A stretch of 64,000 nt of DNA, taken from contig OZ255836.1 in assembly GCA_965277715.1 (NCBI GenBank), positions 320,001 through 384,000 of the forward strand. The letters are read 5' to 3'. Of the stretch, positions 29,485 to 62,070 are shown one piece after another; the first letter of the stretch is position 1, and each line of letters starts with the position of its first letter. The notes under the pieces are model-generated. The model searched no databases. It was given only the letters and a program-made list of their open reading frames with translations, and was not told the origin of the DNA. A program made the position numbers and the translations under genes. The DNA is from Gammaproteobacteria bacterium (GTDB taxonomy: Bacteria > Pseudomonadota > Gammaproteobacteria > JBCCGL01).

Positions 29485-29488
29485 CTGT

Positions 29489-29593: not shown

Positions 29594-29603
29594 GGCAATT
29601 CGG

Positions 29604-29972: not shown

Positions 29973-29980
29973 GTAAAAAC

Positions 29981-30376: not shown

Positions 30377-30427
30377 TTCCCAAACTTTAAGTCTGTGCTG
30401 TTGAAAGGAAACTGATATTATTCACCT

Positions 30428-31285: not shown

Positions 31286-31300
31286 TCATGAAGCAAATAG

Positions 31301-31364
31301 GCATAACAATAGCTTCGTGTGGAACGCTCCGCGTTGCTGCGCGCCGCACAAGCAAGCGTTAGCA
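31301..31364 (+). repeat. attC13 (64 bp)
   Basis: GCATAAC..GTTAGCA. Confidence 0.88.
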
Positions 31365-31375
31365 CGATGAAAGAA

Positions 31376-31897
31376 ATGAAGAAAATTCTCACCTTAGTAT
31401 TAATGCTTGTTCCTCTTGTTTTATCTGCCGCTGAGTATCCGTCACTACTCAAAGTTCCGGTAGGCGAAAGATTTTCCCACCCTCAAGGGATGCAAAACAA
31501 AGATAAAGGTGGGCCTACAACTCAATTCCGAGTCCCAAATCATGGTAACATTTCATCTATTTTTCCTGAGTATTCAATTGCCTATTTAAATGCAACAGGT
31601 CACGTGGTAATAGTAACAGCAGAAAAGGCAGTTAAAAATTGGGAAGAATGTGAGAGCCTGGAAGAGAAGGCATCGCTGCTAATCAGTCAAGCATTTCCTA
31701 ACTATAAGAGTTCACCCGTTTCCAATAGTCAGCTTGGCGCTCCCGGCGAGTTTTCGTTAGAATCAGCAGATACTTACTACGTGCTTCGGTGTAAAGGTTC
31801 GTATGGCCCGTTTGCATACCTTCATTTTCAAATTCGCAGCAAGAGCCAAGATATAGAGTTAAAAAATGCATGGGATGAATACTTCAAAAAGCAATAG
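31376..31897 (+). CDS. Cassette 14: exported hypothetical protein
   Basis: Signal peptide MKKILTLVLMLVPLVLSA; two Cys. Confidence 0.72.
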   Translation: MKKILTLVLMLVPLVLSAAEYPSLLKVPVGERFSHPQGMQNKDKGGPTTQFRVPNHGNISSIFPEYSIAYLNATGHVVIVTAEKAVKNWEECESLEEKASLLISQAFPNYKSSPVSNSQLGAPGEFSLESADTYYVLRCKGSYGPFAYLHFQIRSKSQDIELKNAWDEYFKKQ

Positions 31898-34348: not shown

Positions 34349-37300
34349 ATGTATAGTTTTATTAAGATCATAGCTAAAACCCTTCTGACATTCGCCGCAC
34401 TGTTGGTGATACAAATCACCCCATCGCTTGCTGAAGAGCAACTGTTAGTTGGCAAGCTCAGTGGTGATGCTGAAGTGCGACAGGGTATGCTTAGCTACAG
34501 TCTGCCGCTGGAATTACCGGCTGGAGTCCATGATATGCGCCCGGCGTTGTCACTCAATTACCAGCAGGGAGCCAGCAACGGTGTTTTCGGCCTTGGCTTT
34601 GCACTCGGTGGTGTCTCTTCTATTCAGCGCTGCGCGGCGGATGAGGACAACGACGGTTTTCAGGGTGCGATTCGTTTCGATAGCAATGATCGCTATTGTC
34701 TCAACGGCCAGCGATTGATAGTGGTTGCCGGTACTGACGGTGGTAATGGCAGCGAATACCGTCTGCGCTACTCGCCCGGTACCAAGGTCACTGCACATGG
34801 TCAGCAGGCATCGGGGCCTGAGTACTGGGAAGTAAGATCGGCAGATGGTTTTATCCACCGCTATGGGCAAGGTGGCGACAGCATTAAACTTATCGCTGGC
34901 AAAGCCCAGCAGTGGTATCTACGCGAACAGCGTGATCGATTTGACAACACGCTTACCTATACCTATCAGAATCAAAATGGACTAATACAACTAAAGGACA
35001 TAGAGTACTCCAGTTACACCGTCGAGTTCGTCTACCAACAGCGTCCCGATGTGATGACCTCCTATCAGCTCGGTGAGGCTACTACACAGGATAACCGTCT
35101 AAGTCGTTTGCAGGTAAAACGCCAGAGTCAATTGATCTACGAATACCGTTTCGGTTACTCGGATAGCCCTGATGATGCATTCATTCCACCGGGTATAGCA
35201 CGCGACAACAGCCAGACGAAACTGGAGCACGTAGCTCGGTTGCGCGTTCAGGCAGACAGTATCGATGAGCTCATTGAGGAACGACGTAGCGAGCGTGCTC
35301 AGCATACCGATCAACTCGATGAATACAGTGCACAAAGTGCTGATCTGGAAGAAAAAATTCAGAATGCCGAGGATGATGCCACTAATAAACAGAATGCCGC
35401 GACGCTATACCGCAGCAATGCACTGCAATTGCAGCAGGAGGCTATGCAGATATACCAGCAGCACACCACGACGACCACTGAAGCCTACCCAAATCCGGTG
35501 CCTATTTCGGTTGGCGATATTATGTTTTTTGTCCACGAACACACCAACACCACCTTCAATAGTTCTTTCTGGGAAACTGCCCATGAGGATAAACTGGCGC
35601 AGTCAAATAGTTACATGCGATTGGCTAGTAGCCACGAAGATCTCGCACAAGCCAGTACTGAAAGCGCTCAGGGCTATAGCGAGGCGATAGCGGAAATCGA
35701 GGCTGCGCGCACTCTGCCACAACACGCCGCCGAACTGGCCAACGCAAGTATCAGCAAACTCGAAGCCTCGGCTGCCAGCCTGCGCCAACAGGCGGACACC
35801 CTTGAGGATGATGTGGCCACCACTCTCAACCAGCAGGTACAGACCAACACCACTTCGACAGCCAGCGAGTCGCGCTACAGTCGCCTGTCGAAAGTAACGC
35901 GCTGCGATGCGCAAGGCAACTGCCTTGCCCCATTGCAGTTCGACTACCACTCAGAACCTGCGGAAATTAGCGCCCCCAGCGCTATTCAGCAGGTGTTACT
36001 TGCCGCCTCGGATGAACCTCTTACCTATGTTGTTGGCGATCTGAATAAGGATGGTAACAATGACCTCTGCTACTATGAGGATGGTCTGTACTGCTCACTG
36101 AATGCAGGTGACGGTAACTTCTCCACGGCCACTAAGTGGACAACCGCGTTGGATCCGGGTGCTGGCGGTGAAAACTGGACCAACTCCAACGACGATGACC
36201 GTGGCGAAGAAGAAAAACTCATTACCTTGAGTTTGATTGATATCAACCGTGACGCACAACCTGATTATTGCCTGCTCGGTGACAACGGCATTTTCTGTGG
36301 TATCAACGAAAACGGCGAGCGCTTTGTTGATAGCAGTTATAAGGTGAGTGACCTCACTATCGACAATGCCGTACGCTTTATTGATATAGACCGTGATCGG
36401 TGGGTGGATTTTTGCGCCTTTAAAGAGGACGGCCTGTACTGTGCACGCAACCTGGAAGGCACGTCAGTGACTGAGACCGTCAAAGTGCCCGGTACTGATT
36501 TTGGCTTTTTGCTGGAGCATGCCGTCAGCAAAACCACTACTACCATACATAAGACTAAAGGCGATGACCGTATTGAAACCAGCACCACAACCGAAACCAG
36601 CACCACAACCGAAACCAGCAAAACCCCCCAGCCCTCCCGCATGGATGTCAATGGCGATGGCTATGCGGATATCTGTGGTCTGAAACGCGATCCAGATTCA
36701 TCTGATCTGGACTATCAGTGCGCCCTGGGCCACGGTTATGCCAGCGTAGATGGAGTTGAATACCCTGAGTTTGGTAGTCCTGAGGTATGGGCCGCTAGTT
36801 TGCCAGCACTCAGTACCACACAGGAATTTATCGAAACAAGAGTCCTGAACCGCACGTTTCGCCACGCTGATATCAACGCCGATGGTTTGGCTGATCTCTG
36901 CTACCGGCGTGGTGGTGACTATATGTGCCGAATCAACACTGGGGCAGGTTTTAACGCTGAGACGAGTTGGTTTACTTTTAGCGGGGCAGACTGGGCCGAG
37001 AGTGTATGGTTGCCGGTCATTGAGGCCTCAATCAGCCTGACCGACAGGAATGGTGATCAGCTGGCAGATTTCTGCACCCTGGTTGCCGACGAACAAAAAT
37101 GCGCCTATAGCGACGGTGGGGCGTTTACCAATTATGCCGCCAGGATGCCAGTATTGGCCGACTATGAGATTGAAGATAAGAGCGAATCACTCTACCTGCA
37201 CTCGCTAAAAAGACTATTTGGGCTAAAAACCCATATCCACACAGTCATCATGCGTGCCGCCTATGGCCCCTTCAAGCAAGTGTCGGATATTGACGGTGAC

Positions 37301-40300
37301 GGCTACCCGGATGATTGCTACCGTAGCCACGACGGCATTAGCTGTGGTATCGCCGTCTACCAACCACTGGCGCGCTTGGTGTCAGTTACCGACGGCTATG
37401 GTTTGCGCACGGACTTCAACTATTCCAATCTCGCCAGCCCCGCAGTCTACACCCCAGAAAGTGATGCGGTGTCACCACTGCTTGATATCACACCGGCAAC
37501 ACTGGTGATTAACAGCATTGTCTCGGACAACGCTATAGGTGGTAAAAACACGCTGGAATTCCACTACCAGGGCTATAAAACCCACCGTGAAGATGGTGCT
37601 GTTGGTTACCACAAGATAGAGAAACGCAATCTCACCAGCGGCCTCACTACCTTGACCGAGTACAGCACCGATGAGCTGCTAAAAGGCACGCCAGTGCGCG
37701 TGACCCAGCATTCTAACGGCCAGCTGATAAGCGAAACCGCCTCCACTCACGAAGAAATAACCGACCCACTTACCGGTCGGGAGCGCGCTCGTGTTAGCTA
37801 TTCTGTAGAGCACGATTACGCACTCGACGGCAGCCTGATAAAAACCGAGGAAACCCACTACCACGCATACAACGCTTTCGACCAGCTGCTGCGCTTGGAA
37901 ACGGTTACCCGTGGTGCCGATGGTATCGAGTATCGTCAACTTACTGAGAGTAATTACCTCAACGATGAGGCCGAGTGGGTACTGGCCAAACCCTTAACAA
38001 TAGAAGTTACCCACTCTGTGCCAGGTGATACCAAAAAACGCGCCACCGCGTTCAGCTACTACCCCAACGGCGCCCTGCGTACTGAAACCATACAGCCCGG
38101 TCATCCATTGGCCCTGGAAAGTACCTTTAGCTATAACACCGAAGGTAATCTCACACAGACCTTCATCAAGGGCGTTGAGAGTAGCGAAACGCGTACTAGC
38201 AGCCTGGGTGAATACGACGTCGATGGCCGCCCTGGGCTTGCCACTAATGCACTGGGGCATACCAACCGCACGCAGTACCATGCACTGTGCGGGCTGCCGG
38301 TGGCACAAACCGATGCCAATGGCCTGAGTGTCTTGTGGGAGTACGATGGTGCCTGTCGAAAAATCAAGGAAACCCTGCCAGATGGCCAGGTGACCGAGTG
38401 GTTTTACCAGTGGAGTGACGGCGCCGACGCAGGGCTGGATTACCAGTCCCTGGGGCTGCCGCTGGGGGATCGCAGCGTGTATATGATTACCGAGCGCAAC
38501 AACACGACCGGTGCCTGGTCACGCATATACTACGATGCCCTGGATCGCGAAGTGCGCACTATGCACCTGGACGGCAATTACAAATACGTGATTACCGATA
38601 AGGTATACAACCACCGTGGTCAAATTGCCGCTGCCACCCTGCCGTATTTTGAAGGTCATTTCCCCGGTGATAACACTTTCTGGTCGACCATTGAGTATGA
38701 CCAACTGGGCCGACAACTGGCGCAACATATGCCATCCAGTGATGGCCCTATTACCACCCGCTATGAATACCAGGGGCTGACTACTACCGTTATTGAACCC
38801 AATGATTATCGTAAGGTCACGGTAAGCGATGTGCGCGATAACCCTGTTTCCATTGATGAAAATGGTGCGTCCACGGTCAGCTATCAGTACGATGCCTTGG
38901 GTAACGCTATTCAAACCAATAGTAACGGCTATATCACCACGCTGGAGTACGACCAGCTGGGCAATAAAATAGCGATGAGCGACCCCTCGATGGGGCGTTG
39001 GGAATACCGCTACAATGCCTTCGGCGAGCTGATTTACCAAAAGGATGCCAAGGGCCAGGAAGTTGTATTGCAATACGATGTGCTGGGCCGTAAAACGGCC
39101 AGCCAACAGGTCGATGGAAACTACCATTGGCGTTACGACAGTGCCGAAAACGGCCTGGGCCAGCTCAGCGAGCGCGAAGGGCCGGAATCGCTGCGTCGCT
39201 ACACCTATGATGATCTCGCCAGACCAGACAGCGAAACCCTGAATATCGATGGTCGCCGCTTTACCACGCGCAACAGTTACGACCAAGCCAGCCGTATCGA
39301 TAAGGTTGAACATGCCGACGGCGTTGTGCTTGAGCACGACTACACATTGGATGGCAATCTCAAGCGGGTCAGCATCCCCAAAAGCGTTATCTGGGACTAT
39401 GACTACCTACAAATTGAAGATGCCTTTAGAGCGATTCTGCAGCGCATAGCCGGGTTGGAAAGCATCGCCACTGAATATGAAAGTCGAGCCGGTCACTATG
39501 CAGGTCAGCTGGAGAAATTTCGCACACTGGCCAACCAGCTCTACGCACAACAGGCTACCACCTTAACTGAAACCCAGCAGATACAAGCGGGTATCGCCGA
39601 GCTGGAAGCCGCGTTGCGCCACGCTCAGGATCGCGCCAGCAATTATCGCACAACGGCGGACGTAGCCTGGCAGGCCTTCGGCAGCAATTACCTCGAATAC
39701 CAGCGCACTACCAACGGTTACCACCTCTACAGCAATACCGAGTGTACCAATAGTAACTGGAAAAGGCATTGCAAGAATCGCAACAGTTTCCACCAATGGA
39801 TAGAGGCCAACCTGATTCAGGATACCGATAATTGCACTAGCTACGTTCGCAGACTCGGCAAGAGTCAGGATTTTGCGGAGATCACTGTTACCCACTGTGT
39901 ATGGGGGCCAAAATCGCGTATTAATGTATCAGAAGTGTATCTGCAAGCGGCCAGCCAATGGCAGTCAGAAGCGGATGCAATAGCTGAACAACTCGACGAT
40001 TCCAATGCGCAGCTTGCCCATTTTGATGGCGTTGCCGATGAATATGGTGCACTGGCCAGTAACTATATGGCGCTGGCAACGATTTATGCGGACATGGCGC
40101 GCCGTCAAACCGATATGCTTGCGGCTATTAGCACAGAGTTGGAAGATCTGAGAAATGCCGCGCAGGAACTGGAAACAGTATTGGGTGACGATACTCAGGA
40201 TGATAAAACAGTATTGTTATGGGCGTCGACCAGCCGTGATGCGGCGGGCCGTTTGCAGGGCGAATTGTATGGCAATGGCCTGCTGACTCGGCGCGAGTTT

Positions 40301-42349
40301 GATCGTAACACCGGGTGGTTGAACAGCATCAAAACTGGTATCGGCAACGATTTGCTGCGCAACCTGAGCTACAGCTACGACAAACGTTATAACGTCACCA
40401 GCCGACACGATACGCTGGCAGGTGTAAGTGAGCACTACGGCTACGATAGCCTGGATCGCCTGCAAAGCTGGCAATATAGCGATCCACAGCGGCAGTTGGC
40501 GCGCAGCTACAGCTACGATAGCCGAGGCAACATCACCCACAAGAGCGACGCGGGTTCGATGAGTTACGCGGCCAACAATCGTCTGCAAAGTCGGGTAGAC
40601 CCAACCGGAGCTAATCATACCTATCTTTACGACGCCAATGGCAATATGCAGTCGGGTGACGGCAGAAGTTACACCTGGACCAGTTTTAACAAAGTGGCAC
40701 GCGTCAGCCAGTCGGGCCACCAGGTCGATTACCGTTACGACAGCGAACAAAACCGCGTATCGCGTCAGGCTAATGGGCAGACCACCTACTACATCACCCC
40801 CGGTTTGGAGCTTGTGACCGAAACGGATGCCAACGGCGAGGTGATAAACCGTGCCAGACACAATATTTTTGTTGATGGTCAGGTCGTGGCTACCTACGAG
40901 AAGACGCTGGTGGGCACGACCGAAACGCCCGATAAGGTGGCCTATATTCACCGTGACGCCTTGGGTAGCGTCGATACGGTAACCGACAGCCACGGTAATG
41001 TGGTGATGCGCAATCAGTTTGCACCGTATGGTGAAAACCTGAGTGCGAACAAACCAAGCCCGGCGTTTAAACGACACGAGCTACGTGGTTACACCGGGCA
41101 CGAATCGGTAGCGGAAACTGGCTTAATTAATATGAATGCGCGTCTGTATGATCCGGTAATTGGGCGGTTTATCAGTGCCGACAGCGTGGTGCCTGAACCG
41201 GGTATGGGGATGGCGTATAACCGCTATATGTATGTGGTGGGGAATCCGCTGAAGTACAGTGACCCTACCGGGCACTGGTGGCACTTTGTCGTTGCGGCGG
41301 TGCTTTATGTTATCGGGTCCACTACGGATGACCCAACGATTCGCACGGTGAGTTTTGCTGTGGCCAGTGCGTTGTTGATAGCCAATCCTGTATTTTCGGC
41401 AAATACTGTTGTCAGTACGACCATAATAGAACCGGGCCTGGCAATCTCAACGACGTTAGGTGCGACTGGAGCAGCGGTAGCCAATGGTGCTTTGGTGGGG
41501 TTTGTGAACGGCTATTTCGCCAGCGGTGGTGATTTTGGTGCGGCGCTTCAGGGAGGGATTATTGGTGGTGTGAGTGGAGGGGTTACGGATCAAATAGGTC
41601 ATGGTGGCATTTTTACTGGAGAGAATGCGTGGTTTTCGCAGGCGTTGGCGCATGGGGTTTTTCAGGGATTGATTAGTGAAATTCAGGGAGGGGAGTTTCA
41701 GGCGGGGCTTGCCAGTGGGTTTGTTGCGAAGGTTGGGGGGCATTATTTAGAAGGTACAGCGCTGGATAATATAGCGGGTATATCTATTTTGGGTGGTTTG
41801 GCGAGTAAGGCGGCTGGAGGGGATTTTTTGCAGGGGGCAATTCAGGCGGCTTTTGTTTATATGTATAATGACAAGAATGCACAGAAGAGACCGAGTTATT
41901 CGAAAATGGAAAAGAACTATCCTAGTGGTGACGCGGAAGATGTCTTTGGTGCAGTTGGAGGTAAAGTAGCCATCAATGGAAAGATACCAGCTGATCAAGG
42001 TGGTTGGGAGAATTCCTGTACGGTTAGGATTTCCGTTTGCATGAATGCTAGTGGTGCTGATATTCCTTTTATGAAGGGAGAGACAAGTTCAGGGGCAAAT
42101 GGCAAATGGCATATTTATAGGGTTAAAACACTGGAAAGATATTTGACTGATATGTGGGGGGCTCCAGATATATTGAGTACGAATAAGGCCGATTTCTTTG
42201 GACATAAAGGCATAATTATTTTCGATACTATGGGGACTTGGGTCAATGCATCTGGTCATGCGACTCTATGGCATGGTTCAGGGACGGTTGATGGTAGCAA
42301 TTATTTTGATGAGTCTAGTCGAATTATGTTATGGGCTTTACCGGACTAG
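34349..42349 (+). CDS. Rhs/YD-repeat polymorphic toxin with SpvB-like N-terminus, FG-GAP repeats and a Tae4-like amidase C-terminus
   Basis: Signal peptide; YSLPLELPAG...MRPALSLNY (SpvB/TcB-like); DxNxDG repeats; YD repeats; GYTGHE..MNARLYDPVIGRF..YNRYMY..NPL.YSDPTG; tip NSCTVRIS..GIIIF....W..ASGHATLW. Confidence 0.9.
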   Translation: MYSFIKIIAKTLLTFAALLVIQITPSLAEEQLLVGKLSGDAEVRQGMLSYSLPLELPAGVHDMRPALSLNYQQGASNGVFGLGFALGGVSSIQRCAADEDNDGFQGAIRFDSNDRYCLNGQRLIVVAGTDGGNGSEYRLRYSPGTKVTAHGQQASGPEYWEVRSADGFIHRYGQGGDSIKLIAGKAQQWYLREQRDRFDNTLTYTYQNQNGLIQLKDIEYSSYTVEFVYQQRPDVMTSYQLGEATTQDNRLSRLQVKRQSQLIYEYRFGYSDSPDDAFIPPGIARDNSQTKLEHVARLRVQADSIDELIEERRSERAQHTDQLDEYSAQSADLEEKIQNAEDDATNKQNAATLYRSNALQLQQEAMQIYQQHTTTTTEAYPNPVPISVGDIMFFVHEHTNTTFNSSFWETAHEDKLAQSNSYMRLASSHEDLAQASTESAQGYSEAIAEIEAARTLPQHAAELANASISKLEASAASLRQQADTLEDDVATTLNQQVQTNTTSTASESRYSRLSKVTRCDAQGNCLAPLQFDYHSEPAEISAPSAIQQVLLAASDEPLTYVVGDLNKDGNNDLCYYEDGLYCSLNAGDGNFSTATKWTTALDPGAGGENWTNSNDDDRGEEEKLITLSLIDINRDAQPDYCLLGDNGIFCGINENGERFVDSSYKVSDLTIDNAVRFIDIDRDRWVDFCAFKEDGLYCARNLEGTSVTETVKVPGTDFGFLLEHAVSKTTTTIHKTKGDDRIETSTTTETSTTTETSKTPQPSRMDVNGDGYADICGLKRDPDSSDLDYQCALGHGYASVDGVEYPEFGSPEVWAASLPALSTTQEFIETRVLNRTFRHADINADGLADLCYRRGGDYMCRINTGAGFNAETSWFTFSGADWAESVWLPVIEASISLTDRNGDQLADFCTLVADEQKCAYSDGGAFTNYAARMPVLADYEIEDKSESLYLHSLKRLFGLKTHIHTVIMRAAYGPFKQVSDIDGDGYPDDCYRSHDGISCGIAVYQPLARLVSVTDGYGLRTDFNYSNLASPAVYTPESDAVSPLLDITPATLVINSIVSDNAIGGKNTLEFHYQGYKTHREDGAVGYHKIEKRNLTSGLTTLTEYSTDELLKGTPVRVTQHSNGQLISETASTHEEITDPLTGRERARVSYSVEHDYALDGSLIKTEETHYHAYNAFDQLLRLETVTRGADGIEYRQLTESNYLNDEAEWVLAKPLTIEVTHSVPGDTKKRATAFSYYPNGALRTETIQPGHPLALESTFSYNTEGNLTQTFIKGVESSETRTSSLGEYDVDGRPGLATNALGHTNRTQYHALCGLPVAQTDANGLSVLWEYDGACRKIKETLPDGQVTEWFYQWSDGADAGLDYQSLGLPLGDRSVYMITERNNTTGAWSRIYYDALDREVRTMHLDGNYKYVITDKVYNHRGQIAAATLPYFEGHFPGDNTFWSTIEYDQLGRQLAQHMPSSDGPITTRYEYQGLTTTVIEPNDYRKVTVSDVRDNPVSIDENGASTVSYQYDALGNAIQTNSNGYITTLEYDQLGNKIAMSDPSMGRWEYRYNAFGELIYQKDAKGQEVVLQYDVLGRKTASQQVDGNYHWRYDSAENGLGQLSEREGPESLRRYTYDDLARPDSETLNIDGRRFTTRNSYDQASRIDKVEHADGVVLEHDYTLDGNLKRVSIPKSVIWDYDYLQIEDAFRAILQRIAGLESIATEYESRAGHYAGQLEKFRTLANQLYAQQATTLTETQQIQAGIAELEAALRHAQDRASNYRTTADVAWQAFGSNYLEYQRTTNGYHLYSNTECTNSNWKRHCKNRNSFHQWIEANLIQDTDNCTSYVRRLGKSQDFAEITVTHCVWGPKSRINVSEVYLQAASQWQSEADAIAEQLDDSNAQLAHFDGVADEYGALASNYMALATIYADMARRQTDMLAAISTELEDLRNAAQELETVLGDDTQDDKTVLLWASTSRDAAGRLQGELYGNGLLTRREFDRNTGWLNSIKTGIGNDLLRNLSYSYDKRYNVTSRHDTLAGVSEHYGYDSLDRLQSWQYSDPQRQLARSYSYDSRGNITHKSDAGSMSYAANNRLQSRVDPTGANHTYLYDANGNMQSGDGRSYTWTSFNKVARVSQSGHQVDYRYDSEQNRVSRQANGQTTYYITPGLELVTETDANGEVINRARHNIFVDGQVVATYEKTLVGTTETPDKVAYIHRDALGSVDTVTDSHGNVVMRNQFAPYGENLSANKPSPAFKRHELRGYTGHESVAETGLINMNARLYDPVIGRFISADSVVPEPGMGMAYNRYMYVVGNPLKYSDPTGHWWHFVVAAVLYVIGSTTDDPTIRTVSFAVASALLIANPVFSANTVVSTTIIEPGLAISTTLGATGAAVANGALVGFVNGYFASGGDFGAALQGGIIGGVSGGVTDQIGHGGIFTGENAWFSQALAHGVFQGLISEIQGGEFQAGLASGFVAKVGGHYLEGTALDNIAGISILGGLASKAAGGDFLQGAIQAAFVYMYNDKNAQKRPSYSKMEKNYPSGDAEDVFGAVGGKVAINGKIPADQGGWENSCTVRISVCMNASGADIPFMKGETSSGANGKWHIYRVKTLERYLTDMWGAPDILSTNKADFFGHKGIIIFDTMGTWVNASGHATLWHGSGTVDGSNYFDESSRIMLWALPD
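36575..36620 (+). repeat. In-frame 18-bp tandem repeat (ETSTTT x2.5) in the Rhs gene
   Basis: GAAACCAGCACCACAACC repeated exactly. Confidence 0.85.
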
Positions 42350-42354
42350 TAAGT

Positions 42355-43002
42355 ATGGTTTTTTTTAAAGAGGTAAAAAGGAAGCTGATCGCTGTGCTGT
42401 TATTTCTTTTTTTGAGTTCTATAGGCGCTGTGCTCCATGCAGAGGTAGAAAAGGAGTACATTGAAGAGCTTGGGCAGACTCACTATAGCTACAAAAAAGG
42501 TAACTGTTTTTTTAAACTTATTTCTTTTGATTCTAGTTCGATTAATTCTAATATTTTAAATGTACGACGTTCTTGTTCATTTGGAGCTGTAGAGCAAGCG
42601 GGTTTGTTTGGTGTATTATTTTCTGAGATGAAACTGGATGGAAAGGTTGATCTAATTAATAGGATATCTTGGGGGAAAGTATCAAATTATGAAATAATAA
42701 AAAGACTGGCTGTGTCGGCAGTTAATTCATCGAGCTGGCGTGTTATTACTGGAAATAATACAAAGAAAATACTTGCTAAAAATATTCCAGAGGTGGCTAA
42801 TATTTTAAACAACTCATTGGTTTTTCGAGAGTTGGTTAATATATCAAGAGCACTCGGTTTTCAATTAAGTGTGAAATCAACCGAAGGTATTTTGGTTGCT
42901 AGAGTGGAAGAGATTGATGAATTTTCTGAGTTGATTTTACCTAAAGAATCTATAGTGCCATTTTCTGTAAATGTCTGGTTTTCCATTAGTGTTCTTGAAT
43001 AA
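42355..43002 (+). CDS. Putative immunity protein (exported)
   Basis: Starts 5 bp after the toxin stop; AT-rich; signal peptide ending VLHA; two Cys. Confidence 0.6.
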   Translation: MVFFKEVKRKLIAVLLFLFLSSIGAVLHAEVEKEYIEELGQTHYSYKKGNCFFKLISFDSSSINSNILNVRRSCSFGAVEQAGLFGVLFSEMKLDGKVDLINRISWGKVSNYEIIKRLAVSAVNSSSWRVITGNNTKKILAKNIPEVANILNNSLVFRELVNISRALGFQLSVKSTEGILVARVEEIDEFSELILPKESIVPFSVNVWFSISVLE

Positions 43003-43257: not shown

Positions 43258-45409
43258 GTAAGCGCCAAAGAATAGGCGTCTACCAAATAGTCTGATCCTC
43301 CTTCACACTGCACCACAGCAATCCAATACCCGCTAGGTGTAATATGAGTAATAAAGAACGTGCGTTGTACTGGCGCAATCAAATTGAACAATGGCAAGCA
43401 TCCGGTTTGAGTGGTGCGCAGTTTTGCCAGGATAACGGCATCAACTTGAAGCAGTTTTACTATTGGAGCCGTAAATGTTCGCGTAAAACTATTCAAGCAG
43501 TGCAGAGTAACATGCCTGTAGCAGGCTTTACCCAAGTGATGGTGGCTGATAGGCAAAGGGCTGATCCGGGTTTGTGTTTTACGCTGGCCAATGGCTGTGC
43601 CATTTCTGGCATTACCGCCGCTAATGTGACGTTAGTTAGCGCGTTACTGGCGCAGTTATGACGGCCCGTTATTTGCGGCCATCGCTCGATGTTCCAAAGG
43701 TGTTTTTATACCGAGAGGCGGTGGACTTTCGTAAGCAAAGCAATGGCCTTGTGGCCATTGTTGAGCGAGAACTTGGCCACAACCTGTTTGATGGTGGCCT
43801 ATATGTGTTCACCAACAGGCACCGCAACAAAATCAAATGTCTGATGTGGGAGGACAACGGTTTTGTACTGTATTACAAAGCCTTGGCCGAAGAGCAATTT
43901 AAGTGGCCTGATCTCGATGAGGAAATCATTTCACTGACCGGCACAAAAATAAATTGGTTGCTTGATGGCTATGATTTAGCCGCAATGAAAGGCCACAAAG
44001 TATTGCATTACGAATCTGTTTTTTAGCCTGCTAAAGGGTGAAAAAGTGTTTGATTTTAATGATCTTTAGACAGCTATTTGGTATTATTACGCGATGGTTT
44101 TGGCATCGGAAATTCAACAAAAACAACGCAATTACACCGGCTTAACGGCTGCTGAATTAGTGACCGTGCTGGCAGAAAAAGAAGCCGAATTAGCGCACCA
44201 TAACCAAATTATTCAACGTCATAAAAACACTATTCGACGTCACACAAACAGCATTAAAAACCGCGATCACTACATTCGTTTGCTGGAAGAACGGTTGCGT
44301 CTTTCCAAGGTTCAGAGGTTCGGTGCTAACAGCGAAAAGCTTGCCTTCCAGATTGACTTGTTTGATGAAGCGGAACTCGAACAAGCCATTGTCGACATTG
44401 ATAGCCAGCTACCGGATGAGTTGCTACCTCAGCCTACGGTCACGAACAAGAAAAAACGTCAACGCGGCTTCTCCAACCACTTACCCCGTGTGCGCGTTGA
44501 GCTGGCCTTAAGCGATGAGGAAAAAGCAGGTGCTACACGTACTTTCTTCGTTAAAGTCAAAGAAGAACTCCAATACATTCCCGCACAACTCAACGTTTTA
44601 GAGTACTGGCAAGAAAAGGCCGTCTTCAGCTACGCAGGTGATGACCACATCATCGCCGCACAACGCCCCATACACCCTTTGGGTAAGTGCTTTGCCAGCA
44701 CGGCCTTGCTCGCCAACATCATGGTGTCCAAATACGCCGATGGGTTGCCCTTGTAGGGTATAACGGGGTGTGCGAGCAGCAAAATCTGACACGTATCGGT
44801 TGCTGGGATCATGTGCGCCGAAAATTCATTGATGCCATTAAAGCCGCCGATAAAGCAAACACGAAAAAACCCCGTGCCTCGAAAGCCGATGTCGCCATCG
44901 GTAAAATCCGCAAGCTCTATCTCATTGAGAAAAAGATACAAGCGCTTGAACCCGCAGAAAAACAAACACTTCGCCAAGCACTCAGCCAACCGGTGTTGGA
45001 AGACTTCAAACAATGGCTGGATAAGCATATTACTAAGGTGGCTAAAAAGTCCCTTACGCGTAACGCCATGGACTATGCACTGAATCAATGGCATACCCTC
45101 ACAGGCTACTGTGATGATGGACGGTTACACATCAGCAACGTGCTGGCTGAAAATGCCATTAGGCCTTTTGCCGTGGGTAGAAAAGCCTGGTTGTTTGCCG
45201 ATTCAACCCGTGGCGCCCATGCCAGTGCCACATGTTACTCATTGATCGAAACGGCCAAAGCTAATGGTCTTGAACCCTATGCGTACATACTGCACGTCCT
45301 TAATCATATCGGTAGTGCCGATACTCTTGAAAAGATAGAGGCCTTGCTACCTTGGCATGTCGTTTTGGACATTACCTTGGAATAAAGGCTGTGATTTAAG
45401 GGCGCTTAC
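43258..45409 (+). mobile_element. IS66 copy 2 (tnpA 43344-43661, tnpB 43658-44026, tnpC 44094-45385 broken by an internal deletion at ~44755)
   Basis: Same IRs as copy 1; the segment equivalent to ~14586-14920 (including MDET and VDGY) is missing. Confidence 0.92.
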
Positions 45410-54302: not shown

Positions 54303-54920
54303 GTGGCATCAGTCAGTGCACAAATTGACCTTATTGTCGGGCTGGGTAACCCTGGCCCTGACTATTCAGAAACCCGCCATAATGCGGGTTTTTGGTTTCT
54401 GCAGCATATCGCTGAGGCACAAGGCAAATCCTTTTCGGTCGAGCCACGGTTTTTTGGTGAGGTAGCCAGCGTGGTGATTGATGGCCACACGGTGCGGTTA
54501 CTGAAGCCCACGACATTTATGAACCGCAGTGGCCAATCGGTGGCAGCGTTAGCGCGTTACTTTAAAATTCCGCATGAAAACATCCTGGTTGTACACGATG
54601 AGCTCGACCTGCCAACCGGTGATGCCCGTATCAAATTCGCGGGTGGGCACGGCGGGCACAATGGATTGCGGGATATCATCAGCCATTTTGGTGATGCGAA
54701 TTTTTGGCGGGTTCGCTTGGGCATAGGCCATCCTGGTAAACAATCTCAAGTCGTGGATTACGTGTTGAAACGCGCCACAAAAAATGAACAGGATTTGATC
54801 GGCGAGGCGATGGCCTCCGTGCTCACTGTATTGTCATGGCTTGTTAATGGCGATATACAAAAAGCCACCAATAAAGTGCATTCGCGTCGCCCCAAGAAAA
54901 CACCGATCAACGATAATTGA
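54303..54920 (+). CDS. pth: Peptidyl-tRNA hydrolase
   Basis: [29 protein letters not shown]. Confidence 0.96.
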
Positions 54921-54939
54921 TAACATTTCAGAGAACATC

Positions 54940-56031
54940 ATGGGATTTAAATGTGGAATAGTAGGTATGCCAAATGTGGGCAAATCGACTTTATTTAATG
55001 CGTTGACACAGGCTGAAATAGCCGCTGAAAACTACCCGTTTTGTACAATCGAACCGAATGTTGGCATGGTGCCAGTACCCGATCCGCGTTTGCAGGCGCT
55101 GGCAGATATTGTTTCGCCTGAGCGGATATTGCCCACTACAATGGAATTTGTCGATATTGCCGGTTTGGTTTCCGGTGCCTCGAAAGGTGAAGGGTTGGGC
55201 AATCAGTTCCTTGCGCATATCCGCGAAACGGATGCCATTGCGCATGTAGTGCGCTGTTTTGACGATGATGATGTCGTCCACATCAACGGGCGGGTTAACC
55301 CACTCGATGATGCAGAGGTGATCAACACAGAACTGTTATTAGCCGATGTCGATACCGTCGACAGAGCGGTTCAGCGCATTAGCAAAACAGCTAAATCGGG
55401 CAATAAGCCTGCTATTGCAGAAAAAGCCTTTTTGGAACGATTATCAGAACACCTTGATGGTGGTAGTCCGGCGCGCACTATTGACGTCACCGATAGTGAA
55501 AAAGACCTTTTGAAACATTTGCACCTGCTGACCAGTAAACCGACGATGTACATTGCCAATGTCGATGACAGTGGTTTTACCGATAACCCCATGCTGGATG
55601 CACTGCAAGCACATGCGGCGACTGAATCTGCCAACGTAGTGCCGGTGTGCGCTGCAATTGAGGCTGAAATTGCCTTGCTGGATGATTCTGAAAAAGCAGA
55701 GTTTCTGGAAGACCTGGGTTTACAGGAGCCGGGTCTGGATCGTGTAATTCGTGCGGGCTATGCGCTCTTGGCATTGCAGACATTTTTTACTGCGGGTGTA
55801 AAGGAAGTGCGCGCCTGGACAGTGCGTAAAGCGGCGACTGCGCCACAGGGCGCTGGTCGTATCCACACTGATTTTGAGAAAGGCTTTATACGCGCTGAAG
55901 TCATTGCCTATGGCGATTTTATCCATTACAACGGCGAGCAGGGTGCAAAGGAAGCGGGTAAGTGGCGGCTGGAGGGAAAAGACTATCTGCTGAAAGAAGG
56001 CGACGTTGTACATTTTCGGTTTAATGTTTAA
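54940..56031 (+). CDS. ychF: Redox-regulated ATPase YchF
   Basis: [29 protein letters not shown]-terminal TGS domain ending FRFNV. Confidence 0.97.
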
Positions 56032-56199: not shown

Positions 56200-56645
56200 T
56201 TAACGTCAATAGTTGTAGACCCAATGTAGCTTGTTTAAATTTGGGCTGATTACCTTTTACTGCCAGCAAATAAAATAGTCGGCTTTTTTACCTACTATTG
56301 TCTCTGCAATTGCTTTTTGGCAGCCCATTGCATCAACTGTAATCAAACACCTTTCTAAAATCAGCGATTGGAACAGCTCGGGAATCGCTGTAATTTCATT
56401 GGATTTCGCTGACGTTTTTACTTGACCTGGCACCAAACCGCTTGCCGTTGCCCAAGCACTTACTCTATAGATGGCGGCTTTATTGGCCTCATTAGGCAGC
56501 AATCAGAATGTCGATGAGTTCGTTCCGTTTATTGGCATTGTCTCGCCTATAATCTTCAATTTCTTCAAAATAATCAAAAATACTGCTCTGGTATTTTTCC
56601 ATTTGTGCACTTCTGTCGTGGTCGAATCGCAAAAGTAAGACCCTG
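56200..56645 (-). mobile_element. ISAs1-family remnant with an internal deletion (left boundary approximate)
   Basis: End CAGGGTC at 56645; fragments FEEIEDYR..ELIDIL and VSAWA..GQ....KSNEITAIPEL..ITVDAMGCQK. Confidence 0.85.
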
Positions 56646-56709: not shown

Positions 56710-59700
56710 ATGACCACGCTTTACCCTCGTACCCTTTGGTTTTTTTTACTGCCATGTCTACTCTGCGCCTGTGATTTCGGTGCCTCATCATCACCATCGG
56801 CGCCATCAAGCCGGGTAATTTTGGGGCCGATTGTCGGAGCACAAATAACGGCTGTACGAGCCAGTAGTGTGTCCACCGCGATTGAGACCACCACCACCCT
56901 GGTATCCAATGACCTGAATACGGCTGGTGGTTTTACCTTGTCATTACCCGGTGTTGCTGACTCGGAGTTCATACTGGTAACGGTGATCGGTGGTCGTGAT
57001 ATTGATGCCGATGGCGACGGAACGCTGGATGCAACCCCCACACCCAACAACGGTGTTATCCGCGCCCTGGCGACCGCAGCAGACTGGAGGGCGGGAGTGC
57101 ATGTTACCGTCTTCACTGAAATACAGGTGCAACAACTGATCGGCAACAATTTGCAAGCGTTGCAAAACCTCACCTCTACAGCCATTACCCAGAGCCTGGA
57201 CACAACGGCTCAACGATTATTGCATTCAGATGCGGATGTTAATGGAGACGGTCAAACCAACTATCGGGATACACTCCAGTTTACCCCCACCAACAATAGT
57301 TTCCCCCTGTCGGTATCCCGGAATCAGATCAATCAAATCGCCCAACGTATCAGGCAGGGCGAAAGCGCAGATGCCAGCCAGTTGATTGATAATCTTATCT
57401 CATTGAATGTTGCTGCCGGAGCAGACCAGACCGTAGAACCCGGTAACACCGTCACCCTGAACGGAAGCGCCCAGAGCAGTCGCACTGGCGCAATTCTTAG
57501 CTATGCCTGGACACAAACCGGCGGCACCACATTAACACTCAACAATGCAAATAGTGCTGATGCCAGTTTTACCGTCCCCAGTGTTTCCACCACACAAACC
57601 CTGATTTTTTTGCTGACCGTCGCCGATGGCCTCGGCATCACAGCCACCGATAGTGTGCGCATCCAGGTAGACCAGCAACCGGTGCCCAACGCACACCCCA
57701 GCGTTGCTGCCGGTGCTGACCAGACCGTGACAGAGGGAGCCAGTGTCAGCCTGAGCGGTACCGCTACTGATAGTGATGGCACGATAGCGCGGGTTCAGTG
57801 GTCGCAAACCACCGGTCCCAGTGTTACGCTGAACACTGCTGAGAGTATAAATGCCAGTTTCACAGCCCCCCAGGTAGACACATCAGGTGTTTCGTTGAGC
57901 TTTACTGTCACCGCAACTGATGATAACGGAGCCAGCAGCAGTGACAGCATTACTGTCACCGTCAACGATATCCCCCCGCCAGCGAATATAATACCGGTGG
58001 CCACAGCGCAAGCTCTCAGTGTTGATGAGGATGGCAGCGTGAGTGTAACCCTGAGTGGCACGGATGCAGACGGCAGCGTAACAGGGTTTGCTATCAGTGC
58101 CGCACCAGCCAATGGCAGCCTTAGCGGCACTGCGCCCAATCTCAGCTATACCCCCAATGCCAACTTCAACGGCAGTGATCAATTCACCTTTACCGTCACC
58201 GATAATCAAATGGCTGTCTCCAGCCCGGCTATGGTCAGCATTACAGTCAACTCTGTTAACGATTTGCCCACTGCAAACGCAGGCCCCGATCAAGCTGTAG
58301 GCGAACAGACCATCGTAGCACTCACGGCAACCGCCAGCAGCGATAGTGACGGCACCATTGCCAGCTACGCCTGGGTGGAAACCAGCGGCAGCGGCATAAC
58401 ATTAAGCAATGCAGCCACTGCCACCGCCAGTTTTACCGCCCCGACCTTTGCCACCGATACAGCGCTGACCTTCCGGTTAACGGTAACGGATAACCAAGGT
58501 GGTGTATCGACCGACGATATTGCAGTCACCGTACAGGATGTTAACAATCAGGCGCCTGTTATTACCAGCGCCAATAGCGCCAGCGTCGCCGAAAATACCA
58601 CAGTGGTACTGACGCTGACCGCTACCGACGCCGATACCACCGGCGAGGCCACGGTTTTCACTCTGGGCGGTGATGATGCCAGTCTGTTTACCGTTACTGG
58701 CAGTGCATTGGCATTTACTGCCGCACCGGATTTTGATACCCCGGTTTGCGGTGGCGATAATGCCTGTACTATCACCGCCACACCCAGCGATGGCATCAAT
58801 ACCGGTGTGGCGCAGGCTATTACCATAACGGTGACCGATCTTAACGATACCGCCCCGGTAATAACCAGCGCCAATAGCGCCAGCGTAGCGGAGAACAGCA
58901 CTATCGTACTGACGCTGGTGGCGACTGACGCCGATACCACCGGCGAGGCCACGGTTTTCACTTTGGGCGGTGATGATGCCAGTCTGTTTACCGTTACTGG
59001 CAGTGTATTGGCATTTACTGTCGCACCGGATTTTGAAACCCCGGTTTGCGGTGGCGATAATGCCTGTACTATCACCGCCACACCCAGCGATGGCATCAAT
59101 ACCGGTGTGGCACAGGCCATTACCATAACGGTGACCGATCTTAACGATACCGCCCCGGTAATAACCAGCGCCAATAGCGCCAGCGTCGCCGAAAATACCA
59201 CAGTGGTACTGACGCTGACTGCTACCGACGCCGATACCACCGGCGAGGCCACGGTTTTCACTCTGGGCGGTGATGATGCCGGTCTGTTTACCGTTACTGG
59301 CAGTGCATTGGCGTTTACTGCCGCACCGGATTTTGAAACCCCGGTTTGCGGTGGCGATAATGTCTGTACTATCACCGCCACACCCAGCGATGGCATCAAT
59401 ACCGGTGTGGCACAGGCCATTACCATAACGGTGACCGATCTTAACGATACCGCTCCGGTAATAACCAGCGCCAATAGCGCCAGCGTCGCCGAAAATACCA
59501 CAGTGGTACTGACGCTGACCGCTACCGACGCCGATACCACCGGCGAAGCCACGGTTTTCACCCTGGGCGGTGATGATGCCAGTCTGTTTACCGTTACTGG
59601 CAGTGTATTGGCATTTACTGCCGCACCGGATTTTGAAACCCCGGTTTGCGGTGGCGATAATGTCTGTACTATCACCGCGACACCCAGCGATAGCGTCAAT

Positions 59701-61083
59701 ACCGGTGTGGCACAGGCCATTACCATAACGGTGACCGATCTTAACGATACCGCCCCGGTAATAACCAGCGCCAATAGCGCCAGCGTAGCGGAGAACAGCA
59801 CCATCGTATTGACGCTGGTGGCGACTGATGCCGATACCACCGGCGAGGCCACGGTTTTCATCCTGGGCGGTGATGATGCCAGTCTGTTTACCGTTACTGG
59901 CAGTGTATTGGCGTTTACTGCCGCACCGGATTTTGAAACCCCGGTTTGCGGTGGCGATAATGTCTGTACTATCACCGCCACGCCCGGTGATAGCGTCAAT
60001 ACCGGGGTGGCGCAGGCGATCACGATAACGGTGACCGGTCTGCCCACACTTACCCTTGTCGACGCCAGCACTCCAGAGGGAGATACCGGTACCAGCACTG
60101 CGAATATCACTGTCACCCTGGCACAATTTGACCAAAGTGCCGATGTGAGCTTTACCGTGACCGATGGCACGGCCACCTTGACGGACAACGACTACAGCGC
60201 CACCGCCAGCGGCACCTTGAGCTTTACCGGCGGTGCTACCACGGCGACTATTCCCATTACCGTAAATGGTGATACACGCATAGAAACGGATGAAACGGTG
60301 ACGATCACCCTCAGCAACCCGGTCAATGCCGAGCTGGCAGTCGATACCATGGCGACACTCACCATCACCAACGATGACTTCGCCGCCCTCAACGACACCG
60401 GTATTCAATTTGCCGGGGTTTTCCCCAATGGGAACAACAGCAATTGTAGCGATAACCCCGCCACCAACACCGTGCTGGCGCAGCAAGACTGTACCAATGG
60501 CAGAGACGCACAAGCGACAGCGGGCACACTGATAAAAGTCGGCGGTGGTCAAGCCGGTTTTGACTTTACTAAGCTGGGGGGCGACGGCACCCCGCTGACG
60601 ATTCAAAATGCCACCTACAGCGATACTGGCAATGAGGCGAACGGCACCATGTGGTCATGCGTGAGGGATAATCGCACTGGTTTGGTCTGGGAGGTAAAAA
60701 CTGCCGCCAATCGAAACACCACCTACCGTTGGGGTGGCTTGACGGCGGTGGGCCGCACAAGCCTTGATCGCCAAGGCAGCTATTTTGACGACTGGAATAC
60801 TCTGGTAAACACGGCTAACGCCAATACCGGTCTGTGCGGTTTCACCGATTGGCGCGTGCCGAAGCTGTATACCCTGCAAACTATCGTAAATAAAGGCAGG
60901 TTTAACCTCGCTATAGACAGTAGCTATTTTCCCAACATCGGGAGCGGTAGTTTTTATTGGTCTTCTTCCCCGCTGGCCCGGCTTAGTAACAGTGTCTGGT
61001 TTATCGATTTCAATAATGGCAATGATTTTAACTTCAACCGCGATAGCGCCCTAAGGGTTCGATTGGTTCGCGGCGGACAGTAG
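56710..61083 (+). CDS. Giant lipoprotein adhesin: PKD/Ig-like, cadherin-like x5, Calx-beta and C-terminal DUF1566 (Lcl/C-type-lectin-like) domains
   Basis: RBS AGGAG; lipobox LCAC; AGADQTV..SYAW.QT.G, PNANFNGSDQFTF, APVITS..APDFE, GDTRIETDET; LNDTGI..QDC..GRD..GFDFTKL..WSCVRDN.TGL.WE..CGFTDWR.P..YWSSS..VRLVR. Confidence 0.88.
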   Translation: MTTLYPRTLWFFLLPCLLCACDFGASSSPSAPSSRVILGPIVGAQITAVRASSVSTAIETTTTLVSNDLNTAGGFTLSLPGVADSEFILVTVIGGRDIDADGDGTLDATPTPNNGVIRALATAADWRAGVHVTVFTEIQVQQLIGNNLQALQNLTSTAITQSLDTTAQRLLHSDADVNGDGQTNYRDTLQFTPTNNSFPLSVSRNQINQIAQRIRQGESADASQLIDNLISLNVAAGADQTVEPGNTVTLNGSAQSSRTGAILSYAWTQTGGTTLTLNNANSADASFTVPSVSTTQTLIFLLTVADGLGITATDSVRIQVDQQPVPNAHPSVAAGADQTVTEGASVSLSGTATDSDGTIARVQWSQTTGPSVTLNTAESINASFTAPQVDTSGVSLSFTVTATDDNGASSSDSITVTVNDIPPPANIIPVATAQALSVDEDGSVSVTLSGTDADGSVTGFAISAAPANGSLSGTAPNLSYTPNANFNGSDQFTFTVTDNQMAVSSPAMVSITVNSVNDLPTANAGPDQAVGEQTIVALTATASSDSDGTIASYAWVETSGSGITLSNAATATASFTAPTFATDTALTFRLTVTDNQGGVSTDDIAVTVQDVNNQAPVITSANSASVAENTTVVLTLTATDADTTGEATVFTLGGDDASLFTVTGSALAFTAAPDFDTPVCGGDNACTITATPSDGINTGVAQAITITVTDLNDTAPVITSANSASVAENSTIVLTLVATDADTTGEATVFTLGGDDASLFTVTGSVLAFTVAPDFETPVCGGDNACTITATPSDGINTGVAQAITITVTDLNDTAPVITSANSASVAENTTVVLTLTATDADTTGEATVFTLGGDDAGLFTVTGSALAFTAAPDFETPVCGGDNVCTITATPSDGINTGVAQAITITVTDLNDTAPVITSANSASVAENTTVVLTLTATDADTTGEATVFTLGGDDASLFTVTGSVLAFTAAPDFETPVCGGDNVCTITATPSDSVNTGVAQAITITVTDLNDTAPVITSANSASVAENSTIVLTLVATDADTTGEATVFILGGDDASLFTVTGSVLAFTAAPDFETPVCGGDNVCTITATPGDSVNTGVAQAITITVTGLPTLTLVDASTPEGDTGTSTANITVTLAQFDQSADVSFTVTDGTATLTDNDYSATASGTLSFTGGATTATIPITVNGDTRIETDETVTITLSNPVNAELAVDTMATLTITNDDFAALNDTGIQFAGVFPNGNNSNCSDNPATNTVLAQQDCTNGRDAQATAGTLIKVGGGQAGFDFTKLGGDGTPLTIQNATYSDTGNEANGTMWSCVRDNRTGLVWEVKTAANRNTTYRWGGLTAVGRTSLDRQGSYFDDWNTLVNTANANTGLCGFTDWRVPKLYTLQTIVNKGRFNLAIDSSYFPNIGSGSFYWSSSPLARLSNSVWFIDFNNGNDFNFNRDSALRVRLVRGGQ
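58552..60038 (+). repeat. Five near-identical 300-bp tandem repeats (100-aa cadherin-like domains)
   Basis: Units start at 58552, 58852, 59152, 59452 and 59752. Confidence 0.95.
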
Positions 61084-61166
61084 TTTTTATTTTTCTTATG
61101 AGTATTTACTTGAGTTGAAAGCAATGCCAGTTGCGTGAATTATTGATTATAAAGTGAGAGAGCACC

Positions 61167-61691
61167 ATGAAAAAAACCCTGTTAACCCCTGTTTTAGTTT
61201 TACTGATTGGCCTTTTTGCGCTGCACCAGGCCGCCATGGCACAAACCATCGTCAGTTATATTGACGATGACTGGCCAAATAGCCGCTATAGCGTGCAAAC
61301 GAATGGCACGGTGATCGATACCGTGACGGGGCTACAGTGGATACAATGCAGCGAAGGAACCAGTGGGAGTGACTGTGCCACCGGCTCGGCAGCAGGCTTA
61401 AATTGGCAGGCCGCGTTGCAACGTGCGCAAAACAGCAATTTCGCAGGTTTTACTGATTGGCGTCTACCGAATGTGGAGGAGTTGCGTTCGATAGCGGCGC
61501 TTAACCGCTTTAACCCCAGTATTAATGCCACGGCTTTTCCTAATACGCTGAGTATATTTTATTGGTCTTCTTCCCCACTGGCCCGCTTTACTGGCGATGT
61601 CTGGGTTATCGATTTCTCTGATGGCAATGATGGCGACAGCGGTTTTCGCATTAGCAGCTTTAGGGTTCGACTGGTGCGCGGCGGACAGTAG
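61167..61691 (+). CDS. Exported DUF1566 (Lcl C-terminal-like) protein
   Basis: Signal peptide; NGTVID..TGL.W..C..G, AGFTDWRLPNVEELRSI, FYWSSSP, VRLVRGGQ. Confidence 0.9.
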   Translation: MKKTLLTPVLVLLIGLFALHQAAMAQTIVSYIDDDWPNSRYSVQTNGTVIDTVTGLQWIQCSEGTSGSDCATGSAAGLNWQAALQRAQNSNFAGFTDWRLPNVEELRSIAALNRFNPSINATAFPNTLSIFYWSSSPLARFTGDVWVIDFSDGNDGDSGFRISSFRVRLVRGGQ

Positions 61692-62070
61692 TTTTTTTCT
61701 TTTTTTAACGACGATACCGGGGCGAAGGCGCTGAGGTTGAAGAACGACAATAGAACAGTATCCAATGGTCTAAAGGGATTGGCCACACAGCAGGCAAGGG
61801 AGGGTGTTACAGGAACTTAACCAGCGTGGCGACTACAGCGCCCTGGGCCAGTAGTAAGCCTGCCATCCACTTGATGAGGTCCAAACTTAATGGTCTCTAT
61901 CTTTGCGCCTATTGAGGAATTTAGGTTCAAGCGTAGCCAGTGAAGCTGTGACTCTTAGTGGTTCTCTTTGACGAAACAGGGCCAAATCGTCTTTTCCGCA
62001 GTAGAGTAGACCCACAAGCCAAGGAAGAGAACCGGCTGTATGAAATGCTGTCGCTTGAATGAGAAACACC

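Follow-up and report, generated by a model that had tools for sequence, protein, structure and literature searches.

Two adjacent genes in a 64,000-nucleotide stretch of a gammaproteobacterial genome (contig OZ255836.1, positions 320,001 to 384,000 of the forward strand; the window hereafter) end in a pair of related blocks that are probably variable regions of a diversity-generating retroelement (DGR), a bacterial system that randomises chosen codons. The first gene encodes a large surface adhesin and the second a small secreted protein, and both end in an Lcl_C domain (DUF1566, PF07603), which would place the blocks in the known DUF1566/CLec2 class of DGR targets. The most likely account of the pair is that it is a further chromosomal target site of this class, without a local cassette, and that no new mechanism is involved.

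In this account, a reverse transcriptase (RT) would copy a template repeat into cDNA, misreading adenines, and the cDNA would replace the 3' end of the target gene. Template codons of the form AAY, or others containing A, would become random NNY codons (N, any base; Y, pyrimidine), with non-adenine bases copied faithfully. Distant paralogues would then share a scaffold, silent sites included, interspersed with codons that vary at positions 1 and 2, because the adenines of a shared template had been mutagenised. The randomised residues would sit in C-terminal strands and loops of the C-type-lectin-like Lcl_C fold, with a giant repeat adhesin bearing one variable copy at its tip and a small secreted protein bearing the other. 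Template, Avd and RT would be located at another site in the 4.3-Mb chromosome, or on some mobile element, acting remotely and in trans as other DGRs are known to do, or would have been lost.

A shared scaffold at the 3' ends of two Lcl_C genes

The features on which the argument rests are these:

56710..61083, + strand: large surface adhesin gene, from the open reading frame (ORF) list; 1457 amino acids (aa) from the ATG at 56710
60952..61083, + strand: block 1, variable-region-like; the adhesin's last 43 codons plus stop, from the codon alignment
61063..61080, + strand: block 1, its G+C-rich end, reading CGCGGCGGACAG up to the stop, from the codon alignment; block 2 counterpart at 61671-61688
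61167..61691, + strand: small secreted stand-alone Lcl_C (DUF1566) protein, 174 aa; Pfam Lcl_C match E 5e-32 over residues 47-171
61557..61691, + strand: block 2, variable-region-like; the small protein's last 44 codons plus stop, from the codon alignment

A first-pass annotation of the window had proposed that the 3' ends of the two genes share a nucleotide scaffold, and our codon alignment bore out its coordinates, frames and numbers. Both blocks are in frame and terminate at the stop codons of their respective genes, and block 2 is the longer by one codon. At the DNA level they are identical at 103 of 132 bases (78%), with one codon gap, and the substitutions fall at codon positions 1, 2 and 3 in the proportions 14/9/6. 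As that annotation had also reported, there are 14 amino-acid-changing codon differences, four synonymous ones and an indel of one codon. The synonymous differences are CCG/CCA, CGG/CGC, TTG/CTG and GTT/GTG, and the extra codon is in the small gene. The upstream part of the shared domain (93 aligned codons) is 45.5% identical, and its differences are distributed 46/42/64, which is the usual third-position excess.

Residues that are identical between the two proteins use the same codon at 24 of 28 sites in the block versus 11 of 30 upstream (p = 1.4e-4). Where codons do change, the third base is kept in 11 of 14 cases, again the count given earlier, versus 14 of 60 upstream (Fisher p = 1.9e-4). 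Furthermore, C or T is the last base in 28 of 29 variable codons, which lie at about 60982-61056 and 61587-61664, compared with a baseline of 65.7% in the two genes (p = 8e-5). The similarity detected by BLASTN (60947-61097 and 61552-61705) sets in abruptly, some 5 bases ahead of the block, and continues for about 14 bases beyond the stops. We conclude that the likeness of the blocks is not due to chance.

Sharp block borders would also be expected if no retroelement were involved and if about 150 bases had been copied by gene conversion or partial duplication and then subjected to strong diversifying selection on binding-site codons. The adjacency and common orientation of the genes favour conversion, and the few silent differences would represent some ordinary drift since the copies were alike. 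However, base-by-base selection would not place two or more base changes in 9 of the 14 changed codons while silent changes number 4 of 28, nor would it preserve the third base or produce so nearly uniform a set of NNY codons. In addition, homogenising a scaffold while skipping the single codons interleaved with it is impossible for conversion.

Block 1 is rich in asparagine, with six AAY codons, and was considered as a template of block 2. This was rejected, since by eye the differences are adenine-specific in neither direction; of the 29 differing sites, a by-eye count finds A at 11 in block 1 and at 5 in block 2, so neither is the other's template. Antisense ORFs at 60954-61124 and 61559-61786 were likewise discounted as genes, being merely the reverse reading of the conserved block.

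The adhesin consists of PKD, Big_9, cadherin-like and Calx-beta repeats with Lcl_C at the C-terminus (Pfam E-values of 2.8e-48 for K319L-like_PKD, 3.2e-27 for Big_9 and 1.7e-22 for Lcl_C, the last at residues 1352-1489 of a GTG-start form). Both Lcl_C matches pass the curated PF07603 cut-off of 34.9 bits, with 80.3 bits for the adhesin and 111.1 bits for the small protein. The form starting at the ATG at 56710, which has an AGGAG-like site immediately 5' of it, exactly matches a protein on record from a 4,294,796-base contig, and by eye its N-terminus looks like a lipoprotein or signal sequence. Within the gene, a 300-bp tandem repeat (58564-60041; 4.9 copies, 93% matches) encodes near-identical cadherin-like modules. 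Promoter-like and terminator-like hits spaced at 300 bp reflect this repeat.

The small protein has a hydrophobic helix at the N-terminus. Its AlphaFold model, which draws on 62 homologues, is confident (pLDDT, the predicted local distance difference test, 89.6). The best match to the model among solved folds is the C-terminal domain of Legionella Lcl (8q4e, E 4.8e-5), which the sequence profile of the protein also reaches (E 0.0098). Next come the C-terminal domain of Bdellovibrio Bd2740, C-type-lectin-like proteins and phage Mtd, the last a weak match at rank 9 (E 0.067). Thus, both blocks are 3' ends of genes for a C-type-lectin-type fold, as in the class 'd'/CLec2 DGR targets. DUF1566-type targets belong to this class and make up 14% of DGRs according to passages of Wu et al. 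(2018; PMC5758913).

A search found 104 homologues of the small protein, the best non-self hit being 56% identical; a scan of genome contigs with it yielded no close relative, the best being 42% identical. Among 61 homologues (39-54% identical), the 21 variable columns of the block mostly hold S, Y, N, G, D and F. Residues K, E, Q, M and W occupy 55 of 1278 cells (4.3%) there versus 218 of 1245 (17.5%) in 21 variable N-terminal columns. This composition fits what NNY recoding would produce.

Proven cassettes and ordinary Lcl_C genes as controls

Viral contigs scanned with the Lcl_C family alignment gave 22 loci, six of which had a clear second, imperfect copy of the gene 3' end 0.4-0.7 kb downstream. 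We analysed these six and left aside other repeats in L031, L032, L033, L044 and L045. All have the order target, Avd, template, RT; RVT_1 was found in every one (6 of 6) and bAvd in each of the five tested for it (5 of 5). By coordinates, the template lies inside the called RT ORF in four of them, and an Lcl_C match was found in the L027 ORF. Mismatches between template and variable region were changes from template A to any base in 13/13, 11/12, 12/14, 20/21, 17/18, 15/15, 14/16 and 13/14 cases for eight pairs, or 115 of 123 in total. We conclude that the six loci are canonical DGR cassettes.

In two of these, L026 and L041, one template supplies two adjacent Lcl_C targets, which provides a direct counterpart to the window pair. 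Their blocks are 91% and 88% identical while the upstream domain is 58% identical, and block differences by codon position are 7/4/0 and 8/5/1. Identical residues use the same codon in 30/30 and 24/24 cases, and changed codons share the third base in 8/8 and 11/12. Judged by its sequence, the window pair is of the same shape as these, in a more worn state.

Wherever a variable window column has an aligned template, it coincides with a column in which A stands at codon position 1 or 2 in most of the six real templates (14 of 14); 13 of 29 invariant columns do so (p = 2.6e-4). Gene conversion followed by selection gives no reason for changed columns to coincide with the adenines of real templates. 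The extra codon of block 2 falls in a stretch where the real templates have AAC repeats.

A different question is whether a conserved DUF1566 C-terminal motif, together with shared codon usage, could mimic DNA likeness between paralogues that have simply diverged. The protein motif is family-wide, reading FxWSSSP...AW.V.F..G...RVRLVRGGQ, with R168, L169, V170 and R171 invariant in 62 sequences. However, other adjacent Lcl_C pairs with the same motif (six comparisons in four genomes) are 46-56% identical over the block and drift normally, third positions being the most variable in five of the six. In a wider control of 28 Lcl_C gene ends from five genomes, 87 within-genome comparisons gave a mean block identity of 48.6% (standard deviation 7.8). 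All but one of them (86 of 87) lay at or below 70%, and the third position had the fewest differences in five. Moreover, as given above, the identical upstream residues of the same two window genes share codons in 11 of 30 cases only. Ordinary paralogue divergence is therefore very improbable, and the block signature is more than the family motif.

Lcl_C genes in the genomes G001-G005 very often form tight same-strand pairs, the larger protein first and then the small one; in G001, 12 of 20 Lcl_C matches form six such pairs. Most pairs in G001-G005 do not have the variable-block signature.

Look-alike pairs and the search for a template

The single outlier among the 87 control comparisons, at 80% block identity, was itself an adjacent pair in a Burkholderiales draft genome, and it belongs to a small set of relevant loci:

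G001:C130 (L084), 577-2887: adjacent Lcl_C pair, 402 aa and 175 aa, Burkholderiales draft genome
G104:C2 (L124), 2842-5931: adjacent large-plus-small Lcl_C pair with the variable-block signature
G104:C9 (L123), 1446-6696, - strand: chromosomal DGR, Burkholderiales-family draft genome

In the G001:C130 pair, block differences by codon position are 10/12/4, the same codon is used at 26 of 28 identical residues, and there is no indel. The third base is common in 11 of 13 changed codons, and 24 of 26 variable codons are NNY. The G104:C2 pair is cleaner (84% identity; 8/12/1; same codon 26/26; third base common 13/14). A further pair, in G072, is split over contigs C10 and C58 (78% block identity; same codon 21/25). 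A 24-letter 3' motif taken from the ends of the G001:C130 pair occurs in 13 of 326 genomes of that bacterial family, mostly as pairs 0.8-1.9 kb apart, with 23 matches versus 5 for a reversed control.

Orthologues in G001 and G094 keep 25 of 26 scaffold codons versus 41 of 68 upstream codons, with block differences of 9/12/3. A scaffold that is kept while variable codons differ between species speaks for a common template that still acted once the species had separated. Conversion plus selection does not account for a scaffold retained in this way, which needs a shared template, and we regard that explanation as quite unlikely.

The G104:C9 locus is a complete chromosomal DGR, in which an Lcl_C target of 376 aa is accompanied by a bAvd-like ORF, a template repeat and an RVT_1 gene; the other target is a protein of 798 aa whose internal Lcl_C domain carries a second variable region. 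Its mismatches are A-to-N from the shared TCCTACGCT onward. Its template serves neither the window blocks nor the look-alike pair G104:C2, from which its scaffold differs at 68-72 of 135 bases. Nevertheless, CGCGGCGGACAG, at the end of block 1, is close to the terminal bases CGTGGCGGACAG of the G104:C9 variable regions, where the template reads GGAAAG. The last 12 bases ahead of the stop are identical between block 1 and block 2. This end is a candidate for a homing end like the initiation of mutagenic homing (IMH) site, which in DGRs lies at the variable region's 3' end and often has a GC-rich hairpin after it. A terminator hairpin as the cause of the 3' conservation was rejected, since block 2 has none called and block 1 only a weak 5-bp stem with a T-run (61066-61078).

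Against the assignment of the blocks to a DGR stands a series of observations. Word-7 BLASTN detected no third copy of the block in the window, no RVT_1 or bAvd was present among the 49 window ORFs scanned (those picked at 120 aa or more from 74 listed, the omitted ones being mostly overlapping or antisense frames), and tblastn of six DGR reverse transcriptases and five Avds gave no RT or Avd match in the window. The sole tblastn hits were the template parts of the RT_L026 and RT_L027 ORFs, which matched the two blocks. Exact-pattern scans for the scaffold found no copy in metagenome and viral contigs, and scaffold BLASTN found no match in plasmids and phages. In a collection of 15 billion proteins, the scaffold words of the block (small-protein residues 131-174) occurred in no called protein except the adhesin. 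The "longer" search gave one hit among 10 candidates, which was the adhesin, and the "shorter" search none; thus, no in-frame template is seen inside a called ORF. No hairpin is predicted 3' of either block, as compared with a clear hairpin in one of four folded proven DGR loci (L026, at both variable regions).

The same holds for the look-alike pairs, for which whole-block BLAST gave no matching template in the G001, G104 and G072 drafts and a search with the 18-base scaffold pattern only gave none in G078 and G094. The blocks themselves supply further adverse points. The scaffold is imperfectly shared, with two of the four synonymous differences lying in the 3' RVRLVR stretch, besides the one-codon indel, and two or three variable codons carry C/T third-base changes; the proven two-target pairs have no such scaffold differences. 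The residue composition rich in Y, S, N, D and G is also expected from binding-site selection and is not DGR-specific. Finally, the small-protein sequence is identical on three contigs (NCBI, ENA and Logan), and if these are independent, the three copies argue for stasis.

Nine genome loci with relatives have no second copy of their 3' ends. No DGR cassette lies beside the G001 and G104:C2 pairs, the RT loci of G072 and G104:C19 have no match to the look-alike pairs, those of G001, G003 and G004 hold no template for the Lcl_C genes there, and the Burkholderiales scaffold has no match in viral contigs. The absence of a template from drafts is weak evidence, because mobile elements are often missing from such assemblies. 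In G001:C144 (L014), an RVT_1 gene shares its 3.6-kb locus with an Asn-rich ..RGGSW.NN.. stretch, from about 2582 onward. This stretch may be a template repeat of the sulfatase-lectin (CLec1) type, which would mean a DGR of another target class in G001.

The first-pass annotation had stated that no retroelement is present. This is correct for the window by BLASTN, ORF scan and tblastn, and it extends no further than the window. Its proposal that a DGR had diversified the two genes gains support from the controls, the template-adenine columns and the C-type-lectin fold, but the two features that make a DGR, a template repeat that differs at adenines only and a DGR RT, were not found in the window.

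Because pairs for which no template turned up recur in several draft genomes, we also kept the idea that template and RT are non-resident. The window and Burkholderiales pairs would then have been rewritten by a DGR brought in by a phage, a plasmid or an integrative element, or by a template unlike its targets; we think this unlikely. A phage-borne DGR with remote host targets would be a new arrangement, because Wu et al. (2018) argue, in the relevant passages, that phage-borne DGRs should be without remote chromosomal targets (PMC5758913).

A related possibility concerns present activity only and is a sub-case of the DGR assignment, namely that the blocks are frozen relics of a DGR since lost, through a deleted cassette or a departed mobile element, and now evolve as ordinary DNA. 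The scaffold has drifted more than in any proven pair (24/28 and an indel, versus 30/30, 24/24 and, for G104:C2, 26/26), and the pair lacks an adjoining cassette, whereas in all six proven viral loci the cassette is found within about 0.7 kb downstream. A fragment of an ISAs1 element lies just upstream of the adhesin in a window rich in insertion sequences, and the identity of the small protein on three contigs also fits a frozen state.

However, distance from the RT is not in itself a sign of loss. In the parts of Wu et al. that treat target location, non-adjacent targets are recorded for 45 of 372 DGRs, 10 of which have targets more than 100 kb away, and remote targets millions of bases from the RT are documented (PMC5758913). 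Nor is an imperfect scaffold. Non-adenine differences occur in 23% of DGRs, indels of a multiple of 3 bases beside AAC in 14 of 372 and indels of any length in 25 of 372 (about 7%), most of them multiples of three and most beside AAC, including DGRs taken as active; both kinds of change are concentrated in a non-phage lineage that also has remote targets, as far as those sections go (PMC5758913). Moreover, by eye, all 29 substitutions (29/29) could be template adenines if the template had A at some third positions.

Because of the scaffold drift the pair seems older, or less canonical, than the proven ones. It would be compatible with a live remote DGR, yet it leans towards an older writing event. 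The view that the blocks are frozen relics is a serious possibility that falls somewhat short of an even chance, and within the DGR assignment live and frozen states are roughly even. The earlier suggestion of an old event or two templates is reasonable and not forced, as DGRs do show indels and non-adenine differences in the survey passages cited (PMC5758913).

If a DGR does serve these genes, the binding face of the adhesin and of the small lectin could be varied without changing the rest of the proteins. Such variation would be a plausible way of keeping up with shifting ligands of a host, neighbours or phages. The pair would add a chromosomal large-plus-small DUF1566 case to the known remote DGR targets, and the fact that such pairs recur in several draft genomes with no template to be found there gives the observation wider interest.

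Genomic neighbourhood and comparison with known systems

The gene order around the pair is ychF, the ISAs1 fragment, the adhesin, the small Lcl_C gene on the same strand as the adhesin, rpsO and pnp. Since the ISAs1 fragment lies between ychF and the adhesin, the Lcl_C pair adjoins a scar of mobile DNA. The neighbouring features and others in the window are:

54841-56031: ychF, upstream of the adhesin, from the ORF list
56257-56502, - strand: ISAs1-family transposase fragment, 81 aa, model positions 92-165 of 314
21525-22100, - strand: truncated integron integrase, 191 aa; TIGR02249 215.9 bits, below the cut-off of 265, model positions 9-190 of 315
22369-31897, + strand: 13 same-strand ORFs in the direction opposite to the integrase, 10 without a Pfam match at E <= 1e-5
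34349-42349, + strand: Rhs/SpvB/FG-GAP protein of 2666 aa whose C-terminal domain is Tae4 (type VI amidase effector)
42331-43002, + strand: ORF of 223 aa without a family match, following the Rhs/Tae4 gene

From the integrase and the ORFs, the region 21525-31897 may be an integron cassette array. The other three of the 13 ORFs encode a metallo-beta-lactamase fold, a cupin and a HEPN/nucleotidyltransferase protein. The 223-aa ORF could be the immunity gene of the Rhs/Tae4 protein. Insertion sequences are densely clustered at 7978-21437 and 43658-45385, with IS4-type, IS66, IS3 and IS5-type transposases. Of the two IS66 copies, one lies at 13487-15551 and the other at 43658-45385, where the transposase is split in two frames (44094-44756 and 44687-45385).

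Titles and abstract openings yielded no literature on a DGR in a sponge symbiont, and we compared the pair with systems described elsewhere. Phage Mtd of Bordetella phage BPP-1 also has a lectin-fold C-terminal variable region, although the fold match is weak, and it differs in being a phage receptor-binding protein of the CLec1 class with a local cassette.

Treponema DGR targets are of the FGE-sulfatase (formylglycine-generating enzyme) lectin type. For these remote-target systems the template is known, whereas the window pair is known from its targets alone. The likeness lies in the remote targets of the Treponema denticola DGR, up to seven in number, and in the 3-base indels and non-adenine differences of the Treponema-related lineage, as given in parts of PMC5758913.

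In Legionella pneumophila, the variable region of LdtA lies, as in the window, at the C-terminal end of a DUF1566-type surface or secreted protein with a lectin fold. CLec2 covers DUF1566 and DUF823 along with Fib_succ_major, and about half of the class are short DUF1566-only proteins, the rest having adhesion-type extensions; this makeup matches the small protein and the adhesin of the window, to the extent that the class is described in those passages (PMC5758913). The difference is that LdtA stands in a cassette with template and RT on an integrative element, whereas the window has no cassette.

The chromosomal DGR of G104:C9 has another scaffold and comes from a Burkholderiales draft genome, but its variable regions end in ...ARLVRGGQ, their terminal bases being CGTGGCGGACAG, which is near the ...RVRLVRGGQ of the window and its CGCGGCGGACAG. 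In the phage DGRs L026 and L041, Avd, template and RT directly follow the targets, where the window has rpsO and pnp, and the scaffold is identical at all silent sites, whereas that of the window has drifted. Nevertheless, the arrangement is the one seen in the window: neighbouring Lcl_C genes whose domains have diverged, each ending in a 3' block that is variable at codon positions 1 and 2.

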